DNA of 64,000 nt, taken from positions 313,100 to 377,099 of the forward strand of contig CAWIYS010000009.1 in NCBI GenBank assembly GCA_963840385.1, given 5' to 3'. Below the pieces are notes generated by a model. That model was not told where the DNA came from and ran no database searches. It saw nothing but the letters and a program-made list of their open reading frames with translations. Shown piece by piece: positions 54,462 to 64,000 of the stretch (its first letter is position 1; each line of letters begins with the position of its first letter). The position numbers and the translations under genes are program-made. Source of the stretch: an uncultured Chloroflexia bacterium (lineage in GTDB: Bacteria; Chloroflexota; Dehalococcoidia; DSTF01; JACRBR01).

Positions 54462-57125
54462 CTACCGCCGCTTGGGCTTCTGCTTGATGGGGATCGGCTT
54501 CCGGGCCGAAGTTTTCTTGCCGGCAGGTTGCGGCGGCCCGACCTGCTTGCCGCGCGCCTTCGGCACCTTGCCGGACGCGTCCATGCCGGCGAGCGGCGGC
54601 TGCTTCGGCTCCGGCTCCTTCGGCCCGCCGTTGCCCGGCGCGCCCATCTCGATCGTCGCCAGCGACGCGACGCAATCGCCCGGCGCGACGTTGATCACCG
54701 ACACGCCCTGCGCGGAGCGTCCCGTCATGCGGATGCTGTCCATGCGCGTGCGGATGACGATGCCGTCCTGGCTGATGACGATCAACTCCATCGTGGCGTT
54801 GACGGTGCGCGAGGCGACGACCGTGCCGGTCTTCTTCGTGATCTCGTAGTTGCGAATGCCCTGGCCGCCGCGGTGGTGCGCCGAATACTCCTCGAACGGC
54901 GTCCGCTTGCCGTAGCCGTTCTCGGTAATGCTGAAGAGCTCGTGACCTGGCGTCACGACTTCGAGCGAGACGACCTTGCCGCCCTTCGCCAGCTTGATGC
55001 CGCGGACGCCTCCCGACGTCCTCGACGCCGACCGCAGTTCGCTGACGGCGAAGCGAATCGCCTGCCCGTTCGATGTGATCATCACGATCTCGTCGTCGTC
55101 GTGGCAAAGCTTGGCGGCGATGAACTCGTCGTCCTTCTCCAGATCCATGGCGATCTTGCCGTTCCGGCGCACTTCCTTGAAGTCGGCCAGCGGCGTCTTC
55201 TTGACCTCGCCGCTCGCCGTCGCCATCACCATGAAGTCCTTGTCGTAATCGCGGATCGTGACGAGCGCCGTCACCTGCTCGCCGGGATCCGCATCGATCA
55301 CGTTGACGAGCGGGATGCCCTTCGCCTGGCGCTTGGCGTCCGGCAGGTCGAAGGCGCGCGACTGGAACACGCGGCCGCGCTCGGTGAAGAAGAGCACGTT
55401 GTCGTGCGTATCGCAGACGATGAGCCTGCGCACGGCGTCCTCCTCGCGCGTCACCATGCCGGTGATGCCCTTACCGCCGCGCCGCTGCAGCCGGTACGTC
55501 TCGAGCGGCAGCCGCTTCACGTAGCCGCGGTTCGACAGCGTGACGACGATCTCCTGGTGCGCGATCAGGTCTTCCTCGGCGATGTCCTCAGCGCCGGAGT
55601 CGACGATCTGCGTCTTGCGCTCGTCGCCGAACTCCTTCTTGATCTCGACCATGTCGTCGCGGATCAGGTAGTCGATCTTGCGCGGGTTCTTGAGCAGGTC
55701 TTCGAGGTAGTTGATGCGCTTAATGAGCTCGCGGAACTCATCCTCGATCTTCGCGCGCTCGAGCTTCGCGAGCCGGCGCAGCTGCAGGTCCAGCACGGCC
55801 TGCGCCTGCTTCTCGCTCATCTTCCACGGCTTCGCCATCAGCTTGTCGCGGGCGTCTTCGGCCGATTCGGCGGCGCGGATCGTCTGGATGATCTTGTCCA
55901 GGTCCTTCAGCGCGATCAGGTAGCCCTGCAGGATGTGCTCGCGCTCCCGCGCGCGATTCAGCTCGAACTCCGTGCGCCGGCGGATGACCACGCGTCGATG
56001 CTCGATGTAGGCCTCGAGCATCTTCTTCAGGCCCATCGTCTTCGGCTGGCCGGCGTCGAGCGACACCATGTTCACGGCGAACGACGACTGCATCGCCGTG
56101 TGCTTGTAGAGCTGGTTCAGCACGCTCGCCGCCTGGCCCTCGCGCCCCAGCTCGATGACGATGCGCATGCCGTGGCGGTCCGACTCGTCCCGGAGATCGC
56201 TGATGCCGACGATCTTCCGGTCCTTCACCAGGTCGGCGATCTTCTCGACCAGCGTCGCCTTGTTCACCTGGTACGGCAGCTCCGAGACGATGATCATCTC
56301 GCGGTTGCCCTTCGCCATCTGTTCGATGCGGGCGCGCGCCTGCATGATGATGCGGCCGCGACCGTCGGCGTATGCCTCCTTGATGGCGTCGCGCATGACG
56401 TCGTGGCGCTTGCCCTCGTCGTCGAGCGCGGCGTCCTTGCGCATGCGGTAGATCAGTGCGCCGGTCGGGAAGTCCGGCCCCTTGACGATGCCGGCCAGCT
56501 CTTCCGTCGTCGTGTCCGCGTTCTCGATGAGCGCCATGACGGCGTCGCAGATCTCGTTGAGGTTATGCGGCGGGATGTTCGTCGCCATACCGACGGCGAT
56601 GCCGGAGGCCCCGTTGAGCAGCAGGTTCGGGATGCGCGCCGGCAGCACCCATGGCTCCTGACGCGAGTCGTCGTATGTCGGGACCGTGTCGACGGTGTTG
56701 CTGTCGATGTCGGCCAGCAACTCTTCCGTGATCCGGGCCATCCTCGCTTCGGTGTAGCGCATGGCGGCCGGAGGGTCGCCGTCGACACTGCCGAAGTTGC
56801 CCTGGCCGTCGACGAGCGGATAGCGGAGCGAGAAGTCCTGCGCCAGGCGCGCCATGGCCTCGTACACGGGACTGTCGCCGTGCGGGTGGTACTTCCCCAG
56901 CACCTCGCCGACGATGGCGGCGCTCTTGCGATAGGCCGAACCCGGCCGCAGGTTCATCTCGTTCATCGCGAAGAGGATGCGGCGCTGCACCGGCTTCAGG
57001 CCGTCGCGGACGTCGGGAAGCGCGCGCGCCACGATCACGCTCATCGCGTAGTCGAGGTACGACGAGCGCATCTCGTCTTCGATGCCCCTGTTGCGGATAT
57101 TGCCGAAGCCGGAGTCCTGGGTCAT
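54462..57125 (-). CDS. gyrA: DNA gyrase subunit A
   Basis: [31 protein letters not shown] (catalytic Tyr), GyrA-box QRRGGKG and C-terminal beta-pinwheel repeats. Confidence 0.97.
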
Positions 57126-57407
57126 GCAGCCGTTCTCAAGCCGCGCGTAGATTCAGCGCGGGGCGTCATCCTGATAACCCAGTTTACCAGTTCCCTGCTC
57201 GAACGGGCCACTTCCGGGAGGCGGACGGGAGGGGCAGATTACGCAGAGGAATGAACGCGGGGGAACAAGGATGAGGCGGATTTCACCGATGGGTCCGAGA
57301 TGGCCGCTCAGCTCGGCGTAAACGGCTTTGGCCTCGGCCTTCGGTTCCTGAGCCCGGTGAAGGCTGACCTGCACCAGTTCGCGCAATCCGCGAAATCCCT
57401 GTTCCCT

Positions 57408-58097
57408 TCATCCGCCGGATGTGCCAGAGGGGAGCATTTCGGGGATGCGCTTGGCGCGGACGACGAGACGCTTGTCGTACTGGTGCGTGGCCGAGTTGAA
57501 GGTGCCACTGCAGGTGATGAGCGTGACCTCCTGGTCCGGCGTCGGGCCGACAATCTGGTCGACCGGCGCCGTCGACGAGTCGTACTGCCACAGCGAGTCG
57601 ACGGCGTACTTGTAGACGGTGCCGTCGGCGAGTTGCACCTGCACGAGGTCGCCTGCCACAAGGTCCTTGAGGTTCCAGAACACCGCCTTACCGACGTGGA
57701 TGTAGTCGACGTGGCCCGCGAACACGGCGTTGCCCGGCGAGCCGGGGTGGGCGCTGAAGTTGTACCAGACGGTGTCGTAGGCGTTGTCCGGCGACTGCAT
57801 CACGCCCTGCTCGTCGACGCCCTTCACGACGACCGGCGCGTCGATCTTGGCGTTATCGATGATCAGCCGGGTGATCGGAGAGTTCGAACCGGGCGGGAAC
57901 TGGTCGGCCGGGGTCGGCGTCGGGCCGGGCGTCGGCGTGCGGATGGGGTCGCCGAAGCCGGCGATGGTCTCGAGGCTGCTGTTGCCGCCATCGCCGCCGA
58001 GGATGACGCCGAACGCGATGAGCATGAGGACGATGGCGCCGGCCATCATGCCGACGCCGGCGATCATCAGCGTCAGCGAGATCCTATTCCGGTTCAC
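57408..58097 (-). CDS. Class F-like sortase 1 (N-terminal TM anchor)
   Basis: GNAVFAGH, VTLITC and RLVVRA (His/Cys/Arg triad). Confidence 0.9.
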   Translation of the reverse strand: MNRNRISLTLMIAGVGMMAGAIVLMLIAFGVILGGDGGNSSLETIAGFGDPIRTPTPGPTPTPADQFPPGSNSPITRLIIDNAKIDAPVVVKGVDEQGVMQSPDNAYDTVWYNFSAHPGSPGNAVFAGHVDYIHVGKAVFWNLKDLVAGDLVQVQLADGTVYKYAVDSLWQYDSSTAPVDQIVGPTPDQEVTLITCSGTFNSATHQYDKRLVVRAKRIPEMLPSGTSGG

Positions 58098-58147
58098 GCG
58101 CCTGTCGCTCCGTCCTCCGCCGCCTCATCCGCCACGTCGCGCACCAC

Positions 58148-58940
58148 CTACACGCGGTGTCCGCGCACGATGAACCGGTTGCTGTACTCATGCCCGCTGA
58201 ACGTGCCGATGCAGGTCACGAGCGTGATCGAATCGCCGCCGGTCTTGCCGACGTATTGCGTGAAGTCAGCAGCCGGGGTCGGCCCACTGGCTCCAATCGA
58301 CGACGTAGTTGACGGGGCCGTTGTTCGTGTTGACGGTGATCTGGGCGCCGGCGCCGAGGTCGCGCAGACTCCAGAACACGGCGGGGCCGACGTGGATGTA
58401 GTCGACGTGTCCCGCGAACACGGCGTTAGCGCCTGACTGGCCCGGGAAGCCGCCAAGCGACGGCCAGTCTTGCGAGAAGTCGTACCAGACGACGTCCCAG
58501 GCGCCACTGGGGTTGCCCATCTGCCCGTTCGTGCCGACCGTGCGGCCGTAGACGGGAGCGTTGACGCCGATGGAGGGGATGACGAGCGACATACCCGTGC
58601 CTGTCGCCGCTCCTGGACCGGTTCCCGTGTTCGCCGGGGCACGCCCCCCGCCGGAGCCAGAACTGGTACCGGGCGGCGGCGCCGTGTTCTGCAGGCCCGC
58701 GCTCGCCGGCGTTTCCGTCGGAGGCGGGATTGGAGTTGATGTCGACGTCGGCGCGGGCGTGTCACTCGGCACCTCGGTCGGGGCGACGACCTGCTGGTTC
58801 GAGGCCTCGCCGCCACCGCTCGACATCGCGAACCCGATGCCGACCGCGAGCAGCGCGATCACGACGATGGGCACGCCGACGAGCAGCGCCCGCTTGACGG
58901 TGCTGGCCTCGCGCCACAGGGCCTTGATGGTGTCGCTCAT
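58148..58940 (-). CDS. Class F-like sortase 2 (TM plus Pro/Thr/Gly linker); frameshift near 58275
   Basis: ANAVFAGHVDY, ITLVTC and RFIVRG. Confidence 0.88.
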
Positions 58941-59001
58941 CGTGTCCTCTCCCCTTCCATGGTCGGCAGCGCCATGTCGCGCCGGCTATCCGGTGGAACG
59001 C

Positions 59002-59694
59002 CTAGACCCGCCGTCCCCAGGCGATCTGGCGGTTGTTGTAATGTCCTGCCTCGAACACGCCGGTGCAGGTGATGAGGGTCACCGATTCATCGGCCGTGGC
59101 GGAGACGATGCCGCTCCAGTCGGCTTCGTTGGGGTCGAGCACCTTGTTGAACTCGATCTTATAGTTGTACTCGGTGCCGTCGGTCATGCGGATCGTCACG
59201 ATGTCGCCGGGCGCGAGCTCGTGCAATCGCCAGAACACCGCGGGGCCGTGACGGATGTAGTCGACGTGGCCCGCGATGACGATGTTGCCGCCCTTGCCCG
59301 GCAGCCCGCCAAGGTCCGGGAACTGCGAGAAGTCGTAATAGGCGACGTCGTCCCAGCTGTTGGGGTTCGGCATCTGGCCGTCGGGCGGGACGGCCTTGTA
59401 GGAGAACGGCGCATCGATCTCGAGGTTCGGGATAAGCAGCCGCGATCCGTTGAAGTCACCGCGCCCCGGCACGCCCGTGCCGCGGCCGGCCAGGTCCTCG
59501 TTGGTCAGCATGTCGCCGGGGCTGAAGGCGATGGGTGTCTTTAGGCCGATGTTCACGCCGGGCGTCGGCGTGGCGGCCGCCGTCGCACTGCCCTCGGCCG
59601 TGGGCGTGCCGGACGTCTTCGCCTTGCCGCCGCTGCACGCCGCCAGCAGCGCAGCTGCCGCGATCGCGGCAACGACCGGCGCGATGCGCATCAT
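59002..59694 (-). CDS. Class F-like sortase 3 (lipoprotein anchor; start uncertain)
   Basis: Lipobox LLAAC; GNIVIAGHVDY, VTLITC and RQIAWG. Confidence 0.88.
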   Translation of the reverse strand: MMRIAPVVAAIAAAALLAACSGGKAKTSGTPTAEGSATAAATPTPGVNIGLKTPIAFSPGDMLTNEDLAGRGTGVPGRGDFNGSRLLIPNLEIDAPFSYKAVPPDGQMPNPNSWDDVAYYDFSQFPDLGGLPGKGGNIVIAGHVDYIRHGPAVFWRLHELAPGDIVTIRMTDGTEYNYKIEFNKVLDPNEADWSGIVSATADESVTLITCTGVFEAGHYNNRQIAWGRRV

Positions 59695-59922
59695 CGCGCG
59701 CATCCGCGTGCCGCTCGTGTTCAGGAATCCCGTCGCGTACTTGTTTCGATCCATCGCCGCCCTCAACCTCACCTCGGCAAGCCGGGCCTCCGCACGACAC
59801 AACATATTGCCACATTTGCGCCGTGCGAGCCCCGCCGGATGCCTGTAACTCGGGTTTCGAGACTGTTGCGTCCCGGGATGACACGCGCAAACCACGCACG
59901 CCCGGCCATTCCGCTTGAATGA

Positions 59923-59952
59923 CAGGGGCCCTCGCTTGCGCGAGGGCCCCTG
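59923..59952. terminator. Strong hairpin downstream of the surface-protein gene
   Basis: 13-bp perfect stem CAGGGGCCCTCGC/GCGAGGGCCCCTG; GCAA tetraloop on the minus strand; U-tract weak. Confidence 0.6.
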
Positions 59953-59976
59953 ATCAAGGACCTGTGTCCTGAGCGG

Positions 59977-61368
59977 TTACTTGCCAGTGCGGCGGGTCAC
60001 CATGCCGCCACCGACGAGAACCAGCGAGCCGAGAACCAGCGCGACGAGCGTCCACATCGGGAAGCCAGCCGAGTCGTCCTGGCCCAGGAAACCGCCGGTA
60101 CCGGTGTTCGGACCGACGATGGTGCCACCGCCGCCCGCGGTCGGCGAAGCAGCCGGAGCCACGGTCGGAATCGGCAGCGAGCAGTCGACGCGGATCGACG
60201 CCTGGGCGTCGCCCGAGGTCACGATGACGGTCACACCAGCGGTCGCGCCGGAGAGCGGCGTGATCGTGCTGGAGGCCTCACCGGCCTTCGACTTCACGTT
60301 GATCGGGTTGGCGGTGCCAAGCGCGACCACGCTGAAGTTGACGCTGGTGTTGTCGACGACGTTGTTGCCAGCGGAGTCGGTCACCTTCGCCGTCACGGTC
60401 GAGGTGGCCGTGCCGTCGCAGGCGATCGTCGCCGGCGAAGCCGTCAGGGCGATGCTGGCCGGAACGCCGGTCACGGTGATGTCGGCGGTGCGGGCGACCG
60501 CAGCGGCGGCGCCCATGCCAGTACCCTCGTTGGTCGTCGTGGTGGCCGTCAGAGTGGCCGAACCGGCGGCGATGCCGCAGATAACGTCGAAGCCAGCGAT
60601 GGTCGTGCCATCCGGCAGGAGCATCGAGGTGGCGGTGAAGGATGTGCCGCCGGCGTCGTCGCCGGTGCCGACGTCCATGGTCGAGGACGAGCTGGTCTTG
60701 AACGTCGGCGCGTAGCCGACCAGCGCGTTACCGTCGATGTCGCTGTAGGTAGCGACCGCGCCGGCGCGCGTCGGAGCCGTGATCGAACTGGTCGGGCCAC
60801 AGGCGCCGGACGCGTTCGCTTCCTGGATCGTGTCCTTGGTGACGGTGAGCTGAATGTCGTGGGCCGTGCCAACGAGCTTCAGCGTCTCGGACTCGACCGC
60901 AACGGTGTCCTGGAGCGCCGTGGCGGTGACGTCGCCGGCGAACGTGCCGACGCCGGTCACCTGCCACACGACGAACTGGCCGGACGTACCTACAGTCGCG
61001 GGTGTTGACAGGTCCGTGCCATTGCAGGTCGCGGCTGAGCCCGTCACGGTGGCGCAGACCAGGCCGCGGCCGTTAAGAGACATGCCCGAGTTCGAGCCAT
61101 CGGTCTTGACGACGATGAACACGTCACCCGCGTTCGCCATGTCCGGGCCGATCTGGCCCGCACTCGCGGTGGCCCAGTCGTCGAGCTGGGCAACGTCCGC
61201 GTCCGTCAACGCGGCGAAGTTGACCGCGCCGGCGTTCAGGTATTGCGAGACGTTCTGGTTGACGACCCAGATCTTGGCCGGGTTCGCGTACGTGGTCGAG
61301 GCGTGGAGGCCTCCGAACCCAATGACGGCAACGGCCAGAGCCGCTACCGCTAGAATCAACTTCTTCAA
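59977..61368 (-). CDS. Secreted Ig-like (invasin/Big_1-type) surface protein with C-terminal sortase-type sorting signal
   Basis: TTG start after AGGAGG; signal peptide; TVTAKVTDSAGNNV Ig module; ends GPNTG, spacer, hydrophobic helix, TRRTGK. Confidence 0.85.
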   Translation of the reverse strand: MKKLILAVAALAVAVIGFGGLHASTTYANPAKIWVVNQNVSQYLNAGAVNFAALTDADVAQLDDWATASAGQIGPDMANAGDVFIVVKTDGSNSGMSLNGRGLVCATVTGSAATCNGTDLSTPATVGTSGQFVVWQVTGVGTFAGDVTATALQDTVAVESETLKLVGTAHDIQLTVTKDTIQEANASGACGPTSSITAPTRAGAVATYSDIDGNALVGYAPTFKTSSSSTMDVGTGDDAGGTSFTATSMLLPDGTTIAGFDVICGIAAGSATLTATTTTNEGTGMGAAAAVARTADITVTGVPASIALTASPATIACDGTATSTVTAKVTDSAGNNVVDNTSVNFSVVALGTANPINVKSKAGEASSTITPLSGATAGVTVIVTSGDAQASIRVDCSLPIPTVAPAASPTAGGGGTIVGPNTGTGGFLGQDDSAGFPMWTLVALVLGSLVLVGGGMVTRRTGK

Positions 61369-61832
61369 GTCTTGTTCCTCCTGGTTGGTACGCAGTCTTT
61401 CCTCAAGTCCTGCGTCAGCGGCCGATGCTGTTTCTCTTTCTTTGGCTCACGCCCTCCGGCGGATGCTTCCTCAGGCGAGCTCGTCGTCCTCGGCCGAGTT
61501 ATGGCGACGCGCTGGACCTGGATTCCGTTCCCGCCGGTTGGCCTCCTGCCCTCCTTTCCTCCTCCATTTGCGGGGCGACTACACCGCTTCCCTGCGGGAT
61601 TCGTCTGGGAGCGCCTCGTACGGGCGCCATGCCGTATAACGCCCGCGGCGGGGAGAAGGTTAACCGCCGATCGGCGATTTGCACGTCAGGGATTTCCCGC
61701 ATATCTCGCGGCAAGCTGGCCGAAGCCTGTCTCCAGCCTGAGATATCCGCACGAATGTTCGGTTCCAACACGCGATCCTGCCCCGTGCCCGCCGGCACGG
61801 CAGAGACGCGCAAGCCGGTCTGGGAGGCATAA

Positions 61833-62666
61833 TCAGGGGTATACGGCCAGGTGGGACCCGAATGCAGGGTCGGCGCCGGTCTGCTGCATCGTCTGGGCGA
61901 CCGCCTCCCGCAGGTCCAGCTGAGCCGAGAACAGGTTCTTCAGCAGCGCCTCCGCGGCGGCATCGGTGTGTTCCGCCGTCACGGAGCCGTCCCAGCTGAC
62001 GAAGTCCTTCGCCCCACGCGCCACGAAGGCCTTCGCCAGGTCGTCCGTCTTGAGCCCGGAGCAACCCATCAGCACGATGGTGGCGCCGTGCAGGTTGCCC
62101 TTCATCGAGGACGAAATGAACGCCGGCATGACGCCGAAGAAGCTGTCCTTGATCGGCCGGTCGATGTACGAGTCCACCATCAGGCGGTTGGCGCGCTGGT
62201 CGTCGACGTAACGGTCTCGGCTGTATTTCTCGCTCGTGAAGAGGCCGCTGGACTCGGTGAACTCGCCCGTGAACTTGCCGGTCGCCGGGTCTAGCTTGCC
62301 GACGCTCTCCGAGGCGTGGCTCCGCAGCAGGATGAACTGGTAGTCGCGTTTCGGCAGGTTGCGGTAGAAGTCGACGGTGACCGACGCCGACTTGTAGTAC
62401 TCGACGGTGTAGCCGGCGGCCTGCAACTCGCGCGTCGCCGCCGTCACGAACTCGGGATTGGGGTCTGTGAGCGCAAGCTGGTCGACAATAGCGGCGCGCG
62501 GCGGTCCGGGCTTCGAGCCCGACGACGACCACGCCAGGATGGCGACCGCGGCCACGATGCCGGCGACGGCCAAACCCAGCACCGCGGCCAGCACCCAGAC
62601 TCGCCTCGATTCCAGCGCGAACCGCGCGTTGGAAGGGCGTTGCTGGCCGTCTCGTCGTCCATTCAT
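61833..62666 (-). CDS. Membrane-anchored hypothetical protein with caspase/CHAT-like His-Cys pattern
   Basis: N-terminal TM; FILLRSHA and TIVLMGCS on hydrophobic strands. Confidence 0.6.
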   Translation of the reverse strand: MNGRRDGQQRPSNARFALESRRVWVLAAVLGLAVAGIVAAVAILAWSSSGSKPGPPRAAIVDQLALTDPNPEFVTAATRELQAAGYTVEYYKSASVTVDFYRNLPKRDYQFILLRSHASESVGKLDPATGKFTGEFTESSGLFTSEKYSRDRYVDDQRANRLMVDSYIDRPIKDSFFGVMPAFISSSMKGNLHGATIVLMGCSGLKTDDLAKAFVARGAKDFVSWDGSVTAEHTDAAAEALLKNLFSAQLDLREAVAQTMQQTGADPAFGSHLAVYP

Positions 62667-62849
62667 CGAGAGGTCCCGGCGCCGATGGCGCCCTCCTGGC
62701 GTAAGGCGCTGCCGGCCGGTCCTGGCGGCGGCGCGGTGTCGAGACGGGCGGGGATTGGCCGATTATAGGCGCGCTTCCGCCGCCTCGGCAACGGGCGCCG
62801 CGCCCGCGCGGCCGACGCACCTCCACGCCAAACGCTGTAGAATCGACGC

Positions 62850-63327
62850 GATGCGGAGCGTATCGCGCCTCGCCCTCGGCTACGCGGCCGCCGTCGTGCT
62901 CACGACGGCCTGCTCCGGCGGCTCATCGCCGCCTCCGGGCGCCGGAACGACGTCCACGACCGCCCAGGCGCCGCAAACGCCGGCGACGCCGGCACCCCGC
63001 CCCACGGGCGTCCCGGACGACGCCACGTACGTCGAGCTCGACCAATCGTTCGGCGGCGGCGCGACGGCGCCGGCCGAGGGGACGCCGCCACAGCTGTCGG
63101 CTCTCAGCTGCAAAGACGACGTCCTAACCATCGTCTTGCCCGGGGTCGTGGAGTTGTACGCCGCGCTACCGTGCGACCGCGCCGCCTCGCAGACGGTCGC
63201 CGATCTCTTCATCGGCCGTCCCGTCACCGTCCGCGTCATCGTGGCCGAGGCCGAGAAGCTGCGGCTCGAGTCGCCCTCGGCCGGCACGCTGGAGTTCACA
63301 ATCGCCGGTGCCTGGGCCAAAGAATAG
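62850..63327 (+). CDS. Putative lipoprotein with Pro/Thr-rich linker
   Basis: Lipobox LTTAC; two further Cys residues in the C-terminal domain. Confidence 0.7.
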
Positions 63328-63369
63328 GCGGCGCGGGCGTGCCGCGGCGGCCCTCAGGTCGGGTAAGGA

Positions 63370-63395
63370 GAAGGCCCCTCGATCGAGGGGCCTTC
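63370..63395. terminator. Perfect 26-bp palindrome between convergent genes (bidirectional terminator candidate)
   Basis: GAAGGCCCCTCGA-TCGAGGGGCCTTC. Confidence 0.65.
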
Positions 63396-63429
63396 CTGTT
63401 GCCTGTCTCAGCCGACGGCTAATCGCCCA

Positions 63430-64000
63430 TCAGTCGTCGTGGCCGTTGCGGCGATGGTTGTCGTCCCGATGCGACACTGGCGTCTTCGTCGGGGGCGCCG
63501 GAGTATTGGTCGCGTCGTGGTGGTCATCGCCGTGGTGGTCATCGCCACCGTGGTGGTCATCGCCACCGTGGCCATGTCCGCACGTGGGCGCGTTCGCCAC
63601 TTGCAGCAGGTCGAGCGCATCGATGACGCCGTCGCCGTTGACGTCGTACTTCGCCTTGTACTTCTTCTGGCCTTCAGTCGCCCCGAAGCGCTTCAAGATG
63701 CCGATGGCGAGATCGACCTTCTTGCCGAAGGTCAGACACTGGGCCGGCGTCGGCGTCGACGTGACGGTCGGCGTGTTCGTCGGCACGCCTGCCGGCGTGT
63801 TCGTCGACGTCGGAACAGCCGTGTTGGTCGATGTCGGGACGACCGGCGTGTTCGTCGGCGTGTTCGTCGGCGTCACCGGCGTGTTCGTCGACGTCGGCAC
63901 AGCCGTGTTGGTCGACGTCGGGACGACCGGCGTGTTCGTCGGCGTGTTCGTCGGGGTCACCGGCGTGTTCGTCGAAGTCGGCACAGCAGTGAACGTCGAG
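63430..64000 (-). CDS. 3' part of a Thr/Pro-rich secreted-type protein with a dockerin-like Ca loop and His/Asp-rich tail (continues past right edge)
   Basis: Frame is open to the edge; PTNT repeats; [14 protein letters not shown]; [21 protein letters not shown]. Confidence 0.8.
63817..63984 (-). repeat. Intragenic tandem repeat, 2 x 84 bp
   Basis: Two consecutive copies of [28 protein letters not shown]. Confidence 0.8.

Follow-up and report, generated by a model that had tools for sequence, protein, structure and literature searches.

A 64,000-nucleotide (nt) stretch of an uncultured soil Dehalococcoidia genome (contig CAWIYS010000009.1 of assembly GCA_963840385.1; referred to here as the window) carries a gene for an Ig-like secreted protein, followed by three tandem sortase genes. 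We propose, with a probability of roughly 70%, that these four genes form a lineage-specific sortase anchoring module of peptidoglycan-containing soil Dehalococcoidia, that is, a variant of a known system and not a new kind of machine. The genes are co-oriented on the minus strand at 57408-61368, in the order substrate, srt1, srt2, and srt3, and gyrA follows at 54462-57125. The initial annotation of this DNA had described four same-strand genes with the Ig-like protein directly upstream of three sortases, and the open reading frames (ORFs) bear out both the arrangement and the coordinates. The source is a metagenome-assembled genome (MAG) of 3.4 Mb in 17 contigs, with 68% GC.

The first gene of the locus (59977-61368, minus strand), defined by its ORF and start codon, encodes the putative substrate, a secreted Ig-like protein of 463 amino acids (aa). 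Its start codon is TTG, and an AGGAGG ribosome-binding site (61377-61382) lies 8 nt upstream. A signal peptide (residues ~1-28) is followed by a variable Ig-like N-terminal part (~30-300), a conserved Big_1/invasin-D3-like domain (301-397), a Pro/Ala/Thr linker, and the sorting tail. The Pfam matches of Big_1 and Invasin_D3 to residues 303-393 were weak and fell under the cutoffs. The AlphaFold model (mean predicted local distance difference test, or pLDDT, 86.4) is all-beta and consists of a chain of Ig-like beta-sandwiches, a disordered linker, and a C-terminal helix. Its closest folds in the PDB were FdeC, intimin, invasin, and S-layer Ig chains, and no Gram-positive pilins were among them. 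These features agree with the earlier description of a strongly initiated Ig-like protein.

A homologue search with the substrate found 158 sequences; the counts given below rest on the 120 that were listed, which come from metagenomes and MAGs. All organism-named homologues among these 120 belong to Dehalococcoidia or Chloroflexota. Column conservation was 0.3-0.55 over the N-terminal 300 residues, rose to ~0.8 in the Big_1 domain, and reached 0.82-0.84 in the tail. The substrate thus combines a variable head with a conserved stalk and a signal that is highly conserved.

We then considered the C-terminal signal itself, which lies at 59980-60111 (minus strand). The substrate ends with IVGPNTGTGGFLGQDDSAGFPMW, then a hydrophobic helix, and finally RRTGK. 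The codons of P420-N-T-G423 lie at 60100-60111 and are followed by the conserved prime side TGGFLGQDDSAGFPMW; the transmembrane (TM) helix is predicted at residues 438-457 (59998-60057), leaving a spacer of ~15 aa between TG and helix. The protein thus has the three parts of an LPXTG-type signal (motif, helix, and basic tail), with Gly or Pro in the place of the first Leu in ~108 homologues. About 108 of the 120 listed sequences end in [IV]x[GP]-P-x-T-G-[TNS]-G-G-Y-[LI]-G-Q..S.GFP[ML]W-TLVALALGS.ALV.GG.VT-RR.GK, where the x of the motif is D, N, S, E, V, G, or T. T422, G423, G426, and W439 are invariant, while P420, G425, Y427, L428, R459, and R460 are conserved in at least 90%. Strong conservation extends to the prime-side G-G-Y-L and to the helix, so the recognized signal appears to be longer than LPXTG.

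GPNTG had been annotated as a noncanonical variant of LPxTG, a description that fits both the consensus [GP]PxTG[TNS]GGY and its behavior in profile searches. None of the curated sorting-signal models (TIGR01167, PF00746, and those for GVDTG, NPXTG, LAVTG, and LPxTATN) reached its cutoff on the GPNTG tails. Three such tails were tested: TIGR01167 matched none of them, and PF00746 matched one, at 7.2 bits versus a cutoff of 20. LPDTG and LPSTG tails of the same genome do score, and one LPDTG tail reaches TIGR01167. Because the curated models miss GPxTG tails, the surface proteomes of soil Chloroflexota are under-annotated.

The substrate is not the only protein of this genome with such a tail. 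In a crude set of ORFs from the genome, PNTG was counted 17 times, 10 of them within the last 60 residues, so that the motif is concentrated at C termini. The proteome scan that the initial annotation had suggested, for PxTG followed by a TM helix and a basic tail, returned nine unrelated proteins with xPNTG[STA]G, a TM helix, and a basic tail, as well as ~11 further proteins with LPxTG-like tails.

The three genes downstream of the substrate encode sortases. All matched Pfam Sortase (PF04203, peptidase C60; cutoff, 26.6 bits): srt1 with 67.9 bits, srt2 with 37.3 in its N-terminal part (and a further 18.3), and srt3 with 83.2. Among the class models, NCBIfam class F (NF033748) was the best for each of them (srt1, 73.6 bits; srt2, 46.9 bits; srt3, 119.1 bits), and NCBI labels the homologues of srt1 as "class F sortase." The description of three consecutive class-F-like sortases therefore stands. 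AGHVDY, TL(I/V)TC, and a conserved Arg, which supply the His-Cys-Arg catalytic residues, align in the three paralogues and their orthologues. In a maximum-likelihood tree of 62 sortase domains, srt1, srt2, and srt3 formed separate orthogroups with support values of 100/96, 100/99, and 100/100, indicating that the triplication predates the family. As first annotated, the three enzymes also differ in their anchors: srt3 has a TM helix and a short linker, srt2 a TM helix and a linker of ~77 aa, and srt1 the lipobox LLAAC|SGG.

srt1 (59002-59754, minus strand) starts ~220 nt after the substrate stop codon. The lipobox of its product is LLAA-C40-SGG, with the Cys codon at 59635-59637, and a 94%-identical homologue supports the MDRNKY start. 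A conserved segment, GLKTPIAxSPGDxLTxxDLAxRGTGxPGRGDF, precedes the catalytic domain, which contains the His, Cys, and Arg. Among the 120 closest srt1 homologues, ~85 carry the lipobox (...A[AGV]-C-[GS]GG.K) and ~33 have a TM anchor instead, located after a conserved cytoplasmic motif (GGFLxRLRxNETLRKLTGGRPE). In the genomes of the family, five have the lipobox form and six the TM form. Because both forms occur within one orthogroup, the tethers are alternative modules. A lipoprotein sortase is plausible since the genome encodes Lgt (PF01790, 158.9 bits) and two LspA homologues (PF01252, 114.3 bits). Together with the conservation of the lipobox, this supports the original assignment of srt1 as a lipoprotein. 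A literature search combining sortase and lipobox found no description of lipid-anchored sortases.

srt2 (58148-58940, minus strand) encodes an N-terminal TM helix and the ~77-aa linker, which is rich in Pro, Thr, Gly, and Ser. In this assembly the gene is frameshifted. Frame A (58266-58940) contains the His and stops at 58266 (..WADPGC*), and the Cys and Arg (PAADFTQYVGKTGGDSITLVTC...RGHRV; TLVTC...R) are encoded in the +1 frame B (58148-58276). The run CCCCGG at 58273-58278, where the two frames meet, contains one extra base. In 11 related genomes the two halves are in one frame and abut at the same codon. When joined conceptually, srt2 is normal within its orthogroup, with a terminal branch of 0.19 compared to 0.11 in the sister. 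Consequently, the earlier statement that each sortase keeps His, Cys, and Arg holds for srt1 and srt3, whereas in srt2 as assembled the Cys and Arg are out of frame.

To estimate how frequent such breaks are, we compared the present genome with 118 long ORFs taken from a 200-kb portion of a same-genus genome. Over 42,193 aligned residues (~127 kb of coding sequence), there were 41 frameshift junctions, which corresponds to one every ~3 kb. In a sister genome that stems from a comparable long-read project, gyrA is split into five frames. Given this rate, the break in srt2 is most probably an assembly artefact, although it may also represent a very recent inactivation. Programmed frameshifting was considered and rejected, because the 11 relatives encode the gene in one frame. 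Assembly frameshifts probably also explain the completeness estimate of 70.5% for this 3.4-Mb genome. With frameshifts this frequent, any gene of this genome that looks split or like a pseudogene must be treated as suspect.

Immediately ahead of the catalytic domain, the linker of srt2 (58560-58640) closes with the conserved motif [ST]GPGP, which here reads RAPANTGTGPGAATGTG. Several sorting tails of the genome have a similar prime side, ...NTGSGPG. The linker motif could be a pseudosubstrate segment, or the resemblance could be due to chance.

srt3 (57408-58097, minus strand) has an N-terminal TM helix at approximately residues 8-32 and a short Pro/Thr linker, and it lacks the xWPxLGG insertion of srt1 and srt2. 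H129, C196, and R210 are invariant in the homologue alignment. The catalytic domain was modeled as a sortase barrel with pLDDT values of 75-93, and the top 50 fold matches in the PDB were all sortases. A sequence search of the PDB gave no match at an E value of ≤0.001; a profile search of the same database yielded weak matches (~1e-6) to class A, C, and E sortases. The fold matches identified neither a close solved structure nor a structural class for srt3.

Only four catalytically competent sortases were found in the genome. Two srt1-like lipoprotein paralogues outside the window (C8:60952-61797 and C1:8729-9406, both on the minus strand) have Asp in place of the His and Ala in place of the Cys. 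Homologues lacking the catalytic Cys, most of which also lack the His, are conserved in four other genera, and one Cys-less lineage carries a fused C-terminal cupredoxin-like domain. The paralogues are probably sortase-fold pseudoenzymes. To our knowledge, neither a lipid-anchored sortase nor dead sortase paralogues have been described before.

The initial annotation had regarded the locus as a dedicated surface-assembly system and had proposed synteny as a check; comparison with related genomes supports a dedicated, conserved module of sortases and substrate. The order substrate-srt1-srt2-srt3, usually followed by gyrA, is present on single contigs in ten genomes from eight genera of the family, and two further genomes, in which contig ends interrupt the locus, are compatible with it. 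In order-level relatives, three or four sortase genes are arranged in tandem beside one or two homologous substrates, and the motif is PP[RKP]TG. Among related genomes, 13 were found to encode the tail-bearing substrate, each together with the sortase cluster, whereas no such protein was detected in the three members of the family that lack sortases. More broadly, at least one sortase is encoded in about half of the species genomes sampled from Dehalococcoidia (n = 301).

Anchoring of this kind requires an acceptor. Cultured Dehalococcoides lack a peptidoglycan pathway. That scenario is ruled out for the present genome, since the search for peptidoglycan genes, also suggested at the outset, found two MraY-family genes and four penicillin-binding proteins (PBPs) with transpeptidase domains. 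One PBP gene (C14:336838-337761) adjoins mraY (C14:339511-340011), and two of the PBP transpeptidases lie in a dcw-like neighborhood. The usual acceptor is thus available, and no exotic acceptor needs to be invoked.

Sequences beside the substrate gene suggest that it has its own expression signals. The 5' leader (~235 nt; 61369-61604, minus strand) contains a CCGC/GCGG hairpin, an invariant purine block GGAGGAGGAAAGGAGGGCAGGAGG (~61542-61565), and an invariant stem-loop CGCGTCGCCATAACTCGGCCGAGGACGACG (~61482-61510), and it continues with a 3' hairpin and the AGGAGG ribosome-binding site. The blocks CCCGCAnGGAnGCGG, GGAGGAGGAAAGGAGGGCAGGAGG, and CGCGTCGCCATAACTCGGCCGAGGACGACG are near-invariant in 10 loci from different genera, in which the encoded proteins are only 40-60% identical. 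The leader block ACTCGGCCGAGGACGACG occurs once in the whole genome. RNAalifold predicted 33 pairs in the leader, 14 of them with compensatory changes, with a weak covariation term. An Rfam search of 56500-64000 gave no match for the leader, and a sigma-70 promoter scan found no site. On the other side of the gene, directly after the stop codon, is a GC-rich hairpin of 13 bp with a GCAA loop (59923-59952, minus strand). The 76-nt stretch containing this 3' hairpin folds with -46.1 kcal/mol (z = -6.4 versus shuffles) and has a subthreshold Rfam match to a hairpin-type small RNA family (30.8 bits; gathering score, 39). The hairpin is probably a terminator, an attenuator, or an mRNA-stabilizing 3' end between the substrate and sortase genes.

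According to our model, the substrate would be made from its own transcription unit, using the conserved long 5' leader, the strong ribosome-binding site, and the 3' hairpin. Export would proceed via Sec, and the C-terminal helix and RRxGK tail would keep the protein in the membrane. At least one of the three adjacent class-F-like sortases (His-Cys-Arg) would then cleave it between the Thr and Gly of [G/P]-P-x-T-G. The protein would be displayed with the conserved Big_1 stalk near the wall and the variable Ig-like head outward. The three ancient paralogues with their different tethers most likely divide the ~20 sorting-signal proteins among themselves or act at different distances from the membrane. 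Here we infer the T|G cleavage, the acceptor, and the assignment of sortases to substrates; the genes, motifs, folds, synteny, co-occurrence, and peptidoglycan and lipoprotein pathways are seen in the genomes. The most economical explanation is ordinary sortase anchoring of an adhesin-like protein to peptidoglycan via a lineage-specific extended motif.

A further protein of this genome bears on the extent of that motif. Outside the window, at C14:324185-326078 (plus strand), a secreted protein with four PPC-like repeats ends with IIAGPDTGSGGYLPGAR directly before the stop codon, and no membrane helix follows this tail in any frame. Its ~40 orthologues (37-92% identical) all end in [GLP]PxTG[SN]GGYLPGAR(R), without a helix or basic tail. 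The core PxTGxGGYL is common to these proteins and the substrate in the window. Based on these helix-less tails, a broader proposal is that Dehalococcoidia sortases read an extended [G/P]-P-x-T|G-[S/T/N]-G-G-Y-L signal and process or ligate soluble proteins too, the tethered and dead paralogues forming a multistep or multidepth relay instead of redundant anchors; we consider this speculative and rather unlikely.

Several observations weigh against ordinary anchoring to the wall. The GPNTG tail is not picked up by any curated sorting-signal model, and the three sortases all score under the curated class F cutoff of 166 bits, reaching 28-72% of it. The helix-less PxTGxGGYL proteins are not explained by the classical model of retention followed by cleavage. 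In addition, the ~15-aa spacer between TG and helix exceeds that of classical LPXTG signals, and the unusual conservation of the helix might also reflect its retention. The srt2 gene is interrupted in the present assembly. Finally, all contigs related to the locus come from uncultured Dehalococcoidia/Chloroflexota MAGs.

In a different interpretation, the tail is never cleaved, the substrate is a permanent type I membrane protein, and PxTGxGGYL is a juxtamembrane motif read by something other than a sortase. The helix and basic tail are indeed as conserved as the folded domain, the same motif occurs at the extreme C terminus of helix-less proteins, and no curated sortase-signal model matches it. 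However, an invariant T-G with Pro two residues earlier is the pattern of a sortase scissile site, the tail-bearing protein occurs only where sortases are present and always adjacent to them, and unrelated proteins have in common only the PNTG[ST]G core, a generic helix, and a basic tail. We therefore regard a permanently uncleaved tail as highly improbable. Hardly more credible is the pilus-like polymer that the initial annotation had entertained, in which the sortases would join Ig-like copies head-to-tail via a lysine or another side-chain amine and one of them would anchor the fiber, as in Gram-positive pilus loci. Several sortases beside one Ig-like substrate are reminiscent of pilus islands, the gene order is conserved, and the substrate has strong expression signals of its own. 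Nevertheless, the homologue alignment revealed no conserved lysine in the mature substrate (the best are K178 at 60% and K328 at 50%), class C models gave only 12.9-32.6 bits versus a cutoff of 160 while class F was best, and the fold is that of FdeC, intimin, invasin, and S-layer Ig chains instead of pilins. Moreover, this genome has a single substrate type at the locus and no minor pilins. The lack of a conserved lysine, the poor class C scores, and the invasin-type fold together make the polymer very unlikely.

A view closer to our own holds that the sortases are general housekeeping enzymes for all ~20 sorting-signal proteins and that the Ig-like neighbor, instead of being a dedicated partner, is simply their most abundant or oldest client. 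It overlaps with the module proposed here and differs from it only in specificity. The ~20 candidate substrates are scattered over the genome, the number of competent sortases is small, and the locus adjoins the housekeeping gene gyrA in most genera, all of which favor this view. Conversely, the substrate tail is conserved far beyond the need of a generic signal, and substrate and sortases have stayed adjacent across eight genera. The fourth sortase of the genome, moreover, is encoded elsewhere beside LPDTG-type proteins, which suggests a division of labor. On balance, we find a purely housekeeping role doubtful and retain the lineage-specific anchoring module as the preferred reading.

The surroundings of the locus contain further genes for surface proteins. 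The fourth sortase, which is srt3-like, lies 7-20 kb past the right end of the window (C9:383890-397132) beside LPDTG- and APHAG-tailed proteins. The same region also holds another GPNTG protein, a 996-aa surface protein, and dockerin/PT-repeat proteins, and the locus in the window is one end of this surface-protein island of ~25 kb. Upstream of the substrate gene, 61833-62666 (minus strand) encodes a 277-aa extracytoplasmic protein with an N-terminal TM anchor, for which Pfam, NCBIfam, and PDB sequence searches gave no match. A homologue lies ~4 kb upstream of the substrate in a same-genus genome only, and since it is a neighbor only within the genus, we excluded this gene from the system. 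A protein encoded at 63430-64000 (minus strand), running off the window, has long Pro/Thr (TNTP) repeats, a dockerin type I domain, and a His/Asp-rich C terminus.

Literature searches on the sortases of Dehalococcoidia and the sorting signals of Chloroflexi found nothing relevant, and searches on the GPNTG, PNTG, and PDTG motifs found nothing relevant besides the (S/P)PxTG motif of Clostridioides difficile and papers on class F. Comparison with known systems places the locus among them. With the classical LPXTG signal of sortase A (TIGR01167/PF00746), the substrate tail has in common the motif, the hydrophobic helix, the basic tail, the T-G as presumed scissile bond, and an available peptidoglycan acceptor. 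It differs in having Gly or Pro instead of Leu at P4, a ~15-aa spacer, and a helix conserved in sequence. The substrate also has the same fold as the Big_1 adhesins invasin, intimin, and FdeC, a chain of Ig-like beta-sandwiches, in keeping with its weak Big_1/Invasin_D3 profile matches. Those adhesins belong to diderms and are anchored by an outer membrane beta-barrel, in contrast to the C-terminal sortase-type tail found here in a probable monoderm.

A motif without Leu has a precedent, since the substrates of C. difficile SrtB carry (S/P)PxTG, so that non-Leu xPxTG signals were already known (PMC4155245). As at the present locus, Pro or another small residue replaces Leu before P-x-T-G in these substrates (PMC4155245). 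C. difficile SrtB is, however, a class B enzyme encoded by a single gene, whereas the Dehalococcoidia locus has three paralogues, no class B model among their matches, and the added conserved prime-side G-G-Y-L.

The closest enzymes by profile score are those of class F, the best-scoring class for all three sortases. The clean, conserved pairing of one substrate with three adjacent enzymes and a sharply defined extended motif makes the substrate specificity of this class directly testable with peptides. The motif reported for SrtF of Cutibacterium (Propionibacterium) acnes is LPXTG (Di Girolamo 2019); the motif here is GPxTG, and one of the paralogues is a lipoprotein. The P. acnes enzyme is the only class F sortase characterized so far, and the roles of the class have been called unknown (PMC13251363). 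Deletion of all four class F genes in Actinoplanes had no phenotype (PMC13251363). As in actinomycetes such as A. missouriensis (SrtF1-4), several paralogues are present per genome. The class F genes of A. missouriensis are found at separate loci (PMC13251363), whereas those described here are in tandem and linked to their putative substrate.

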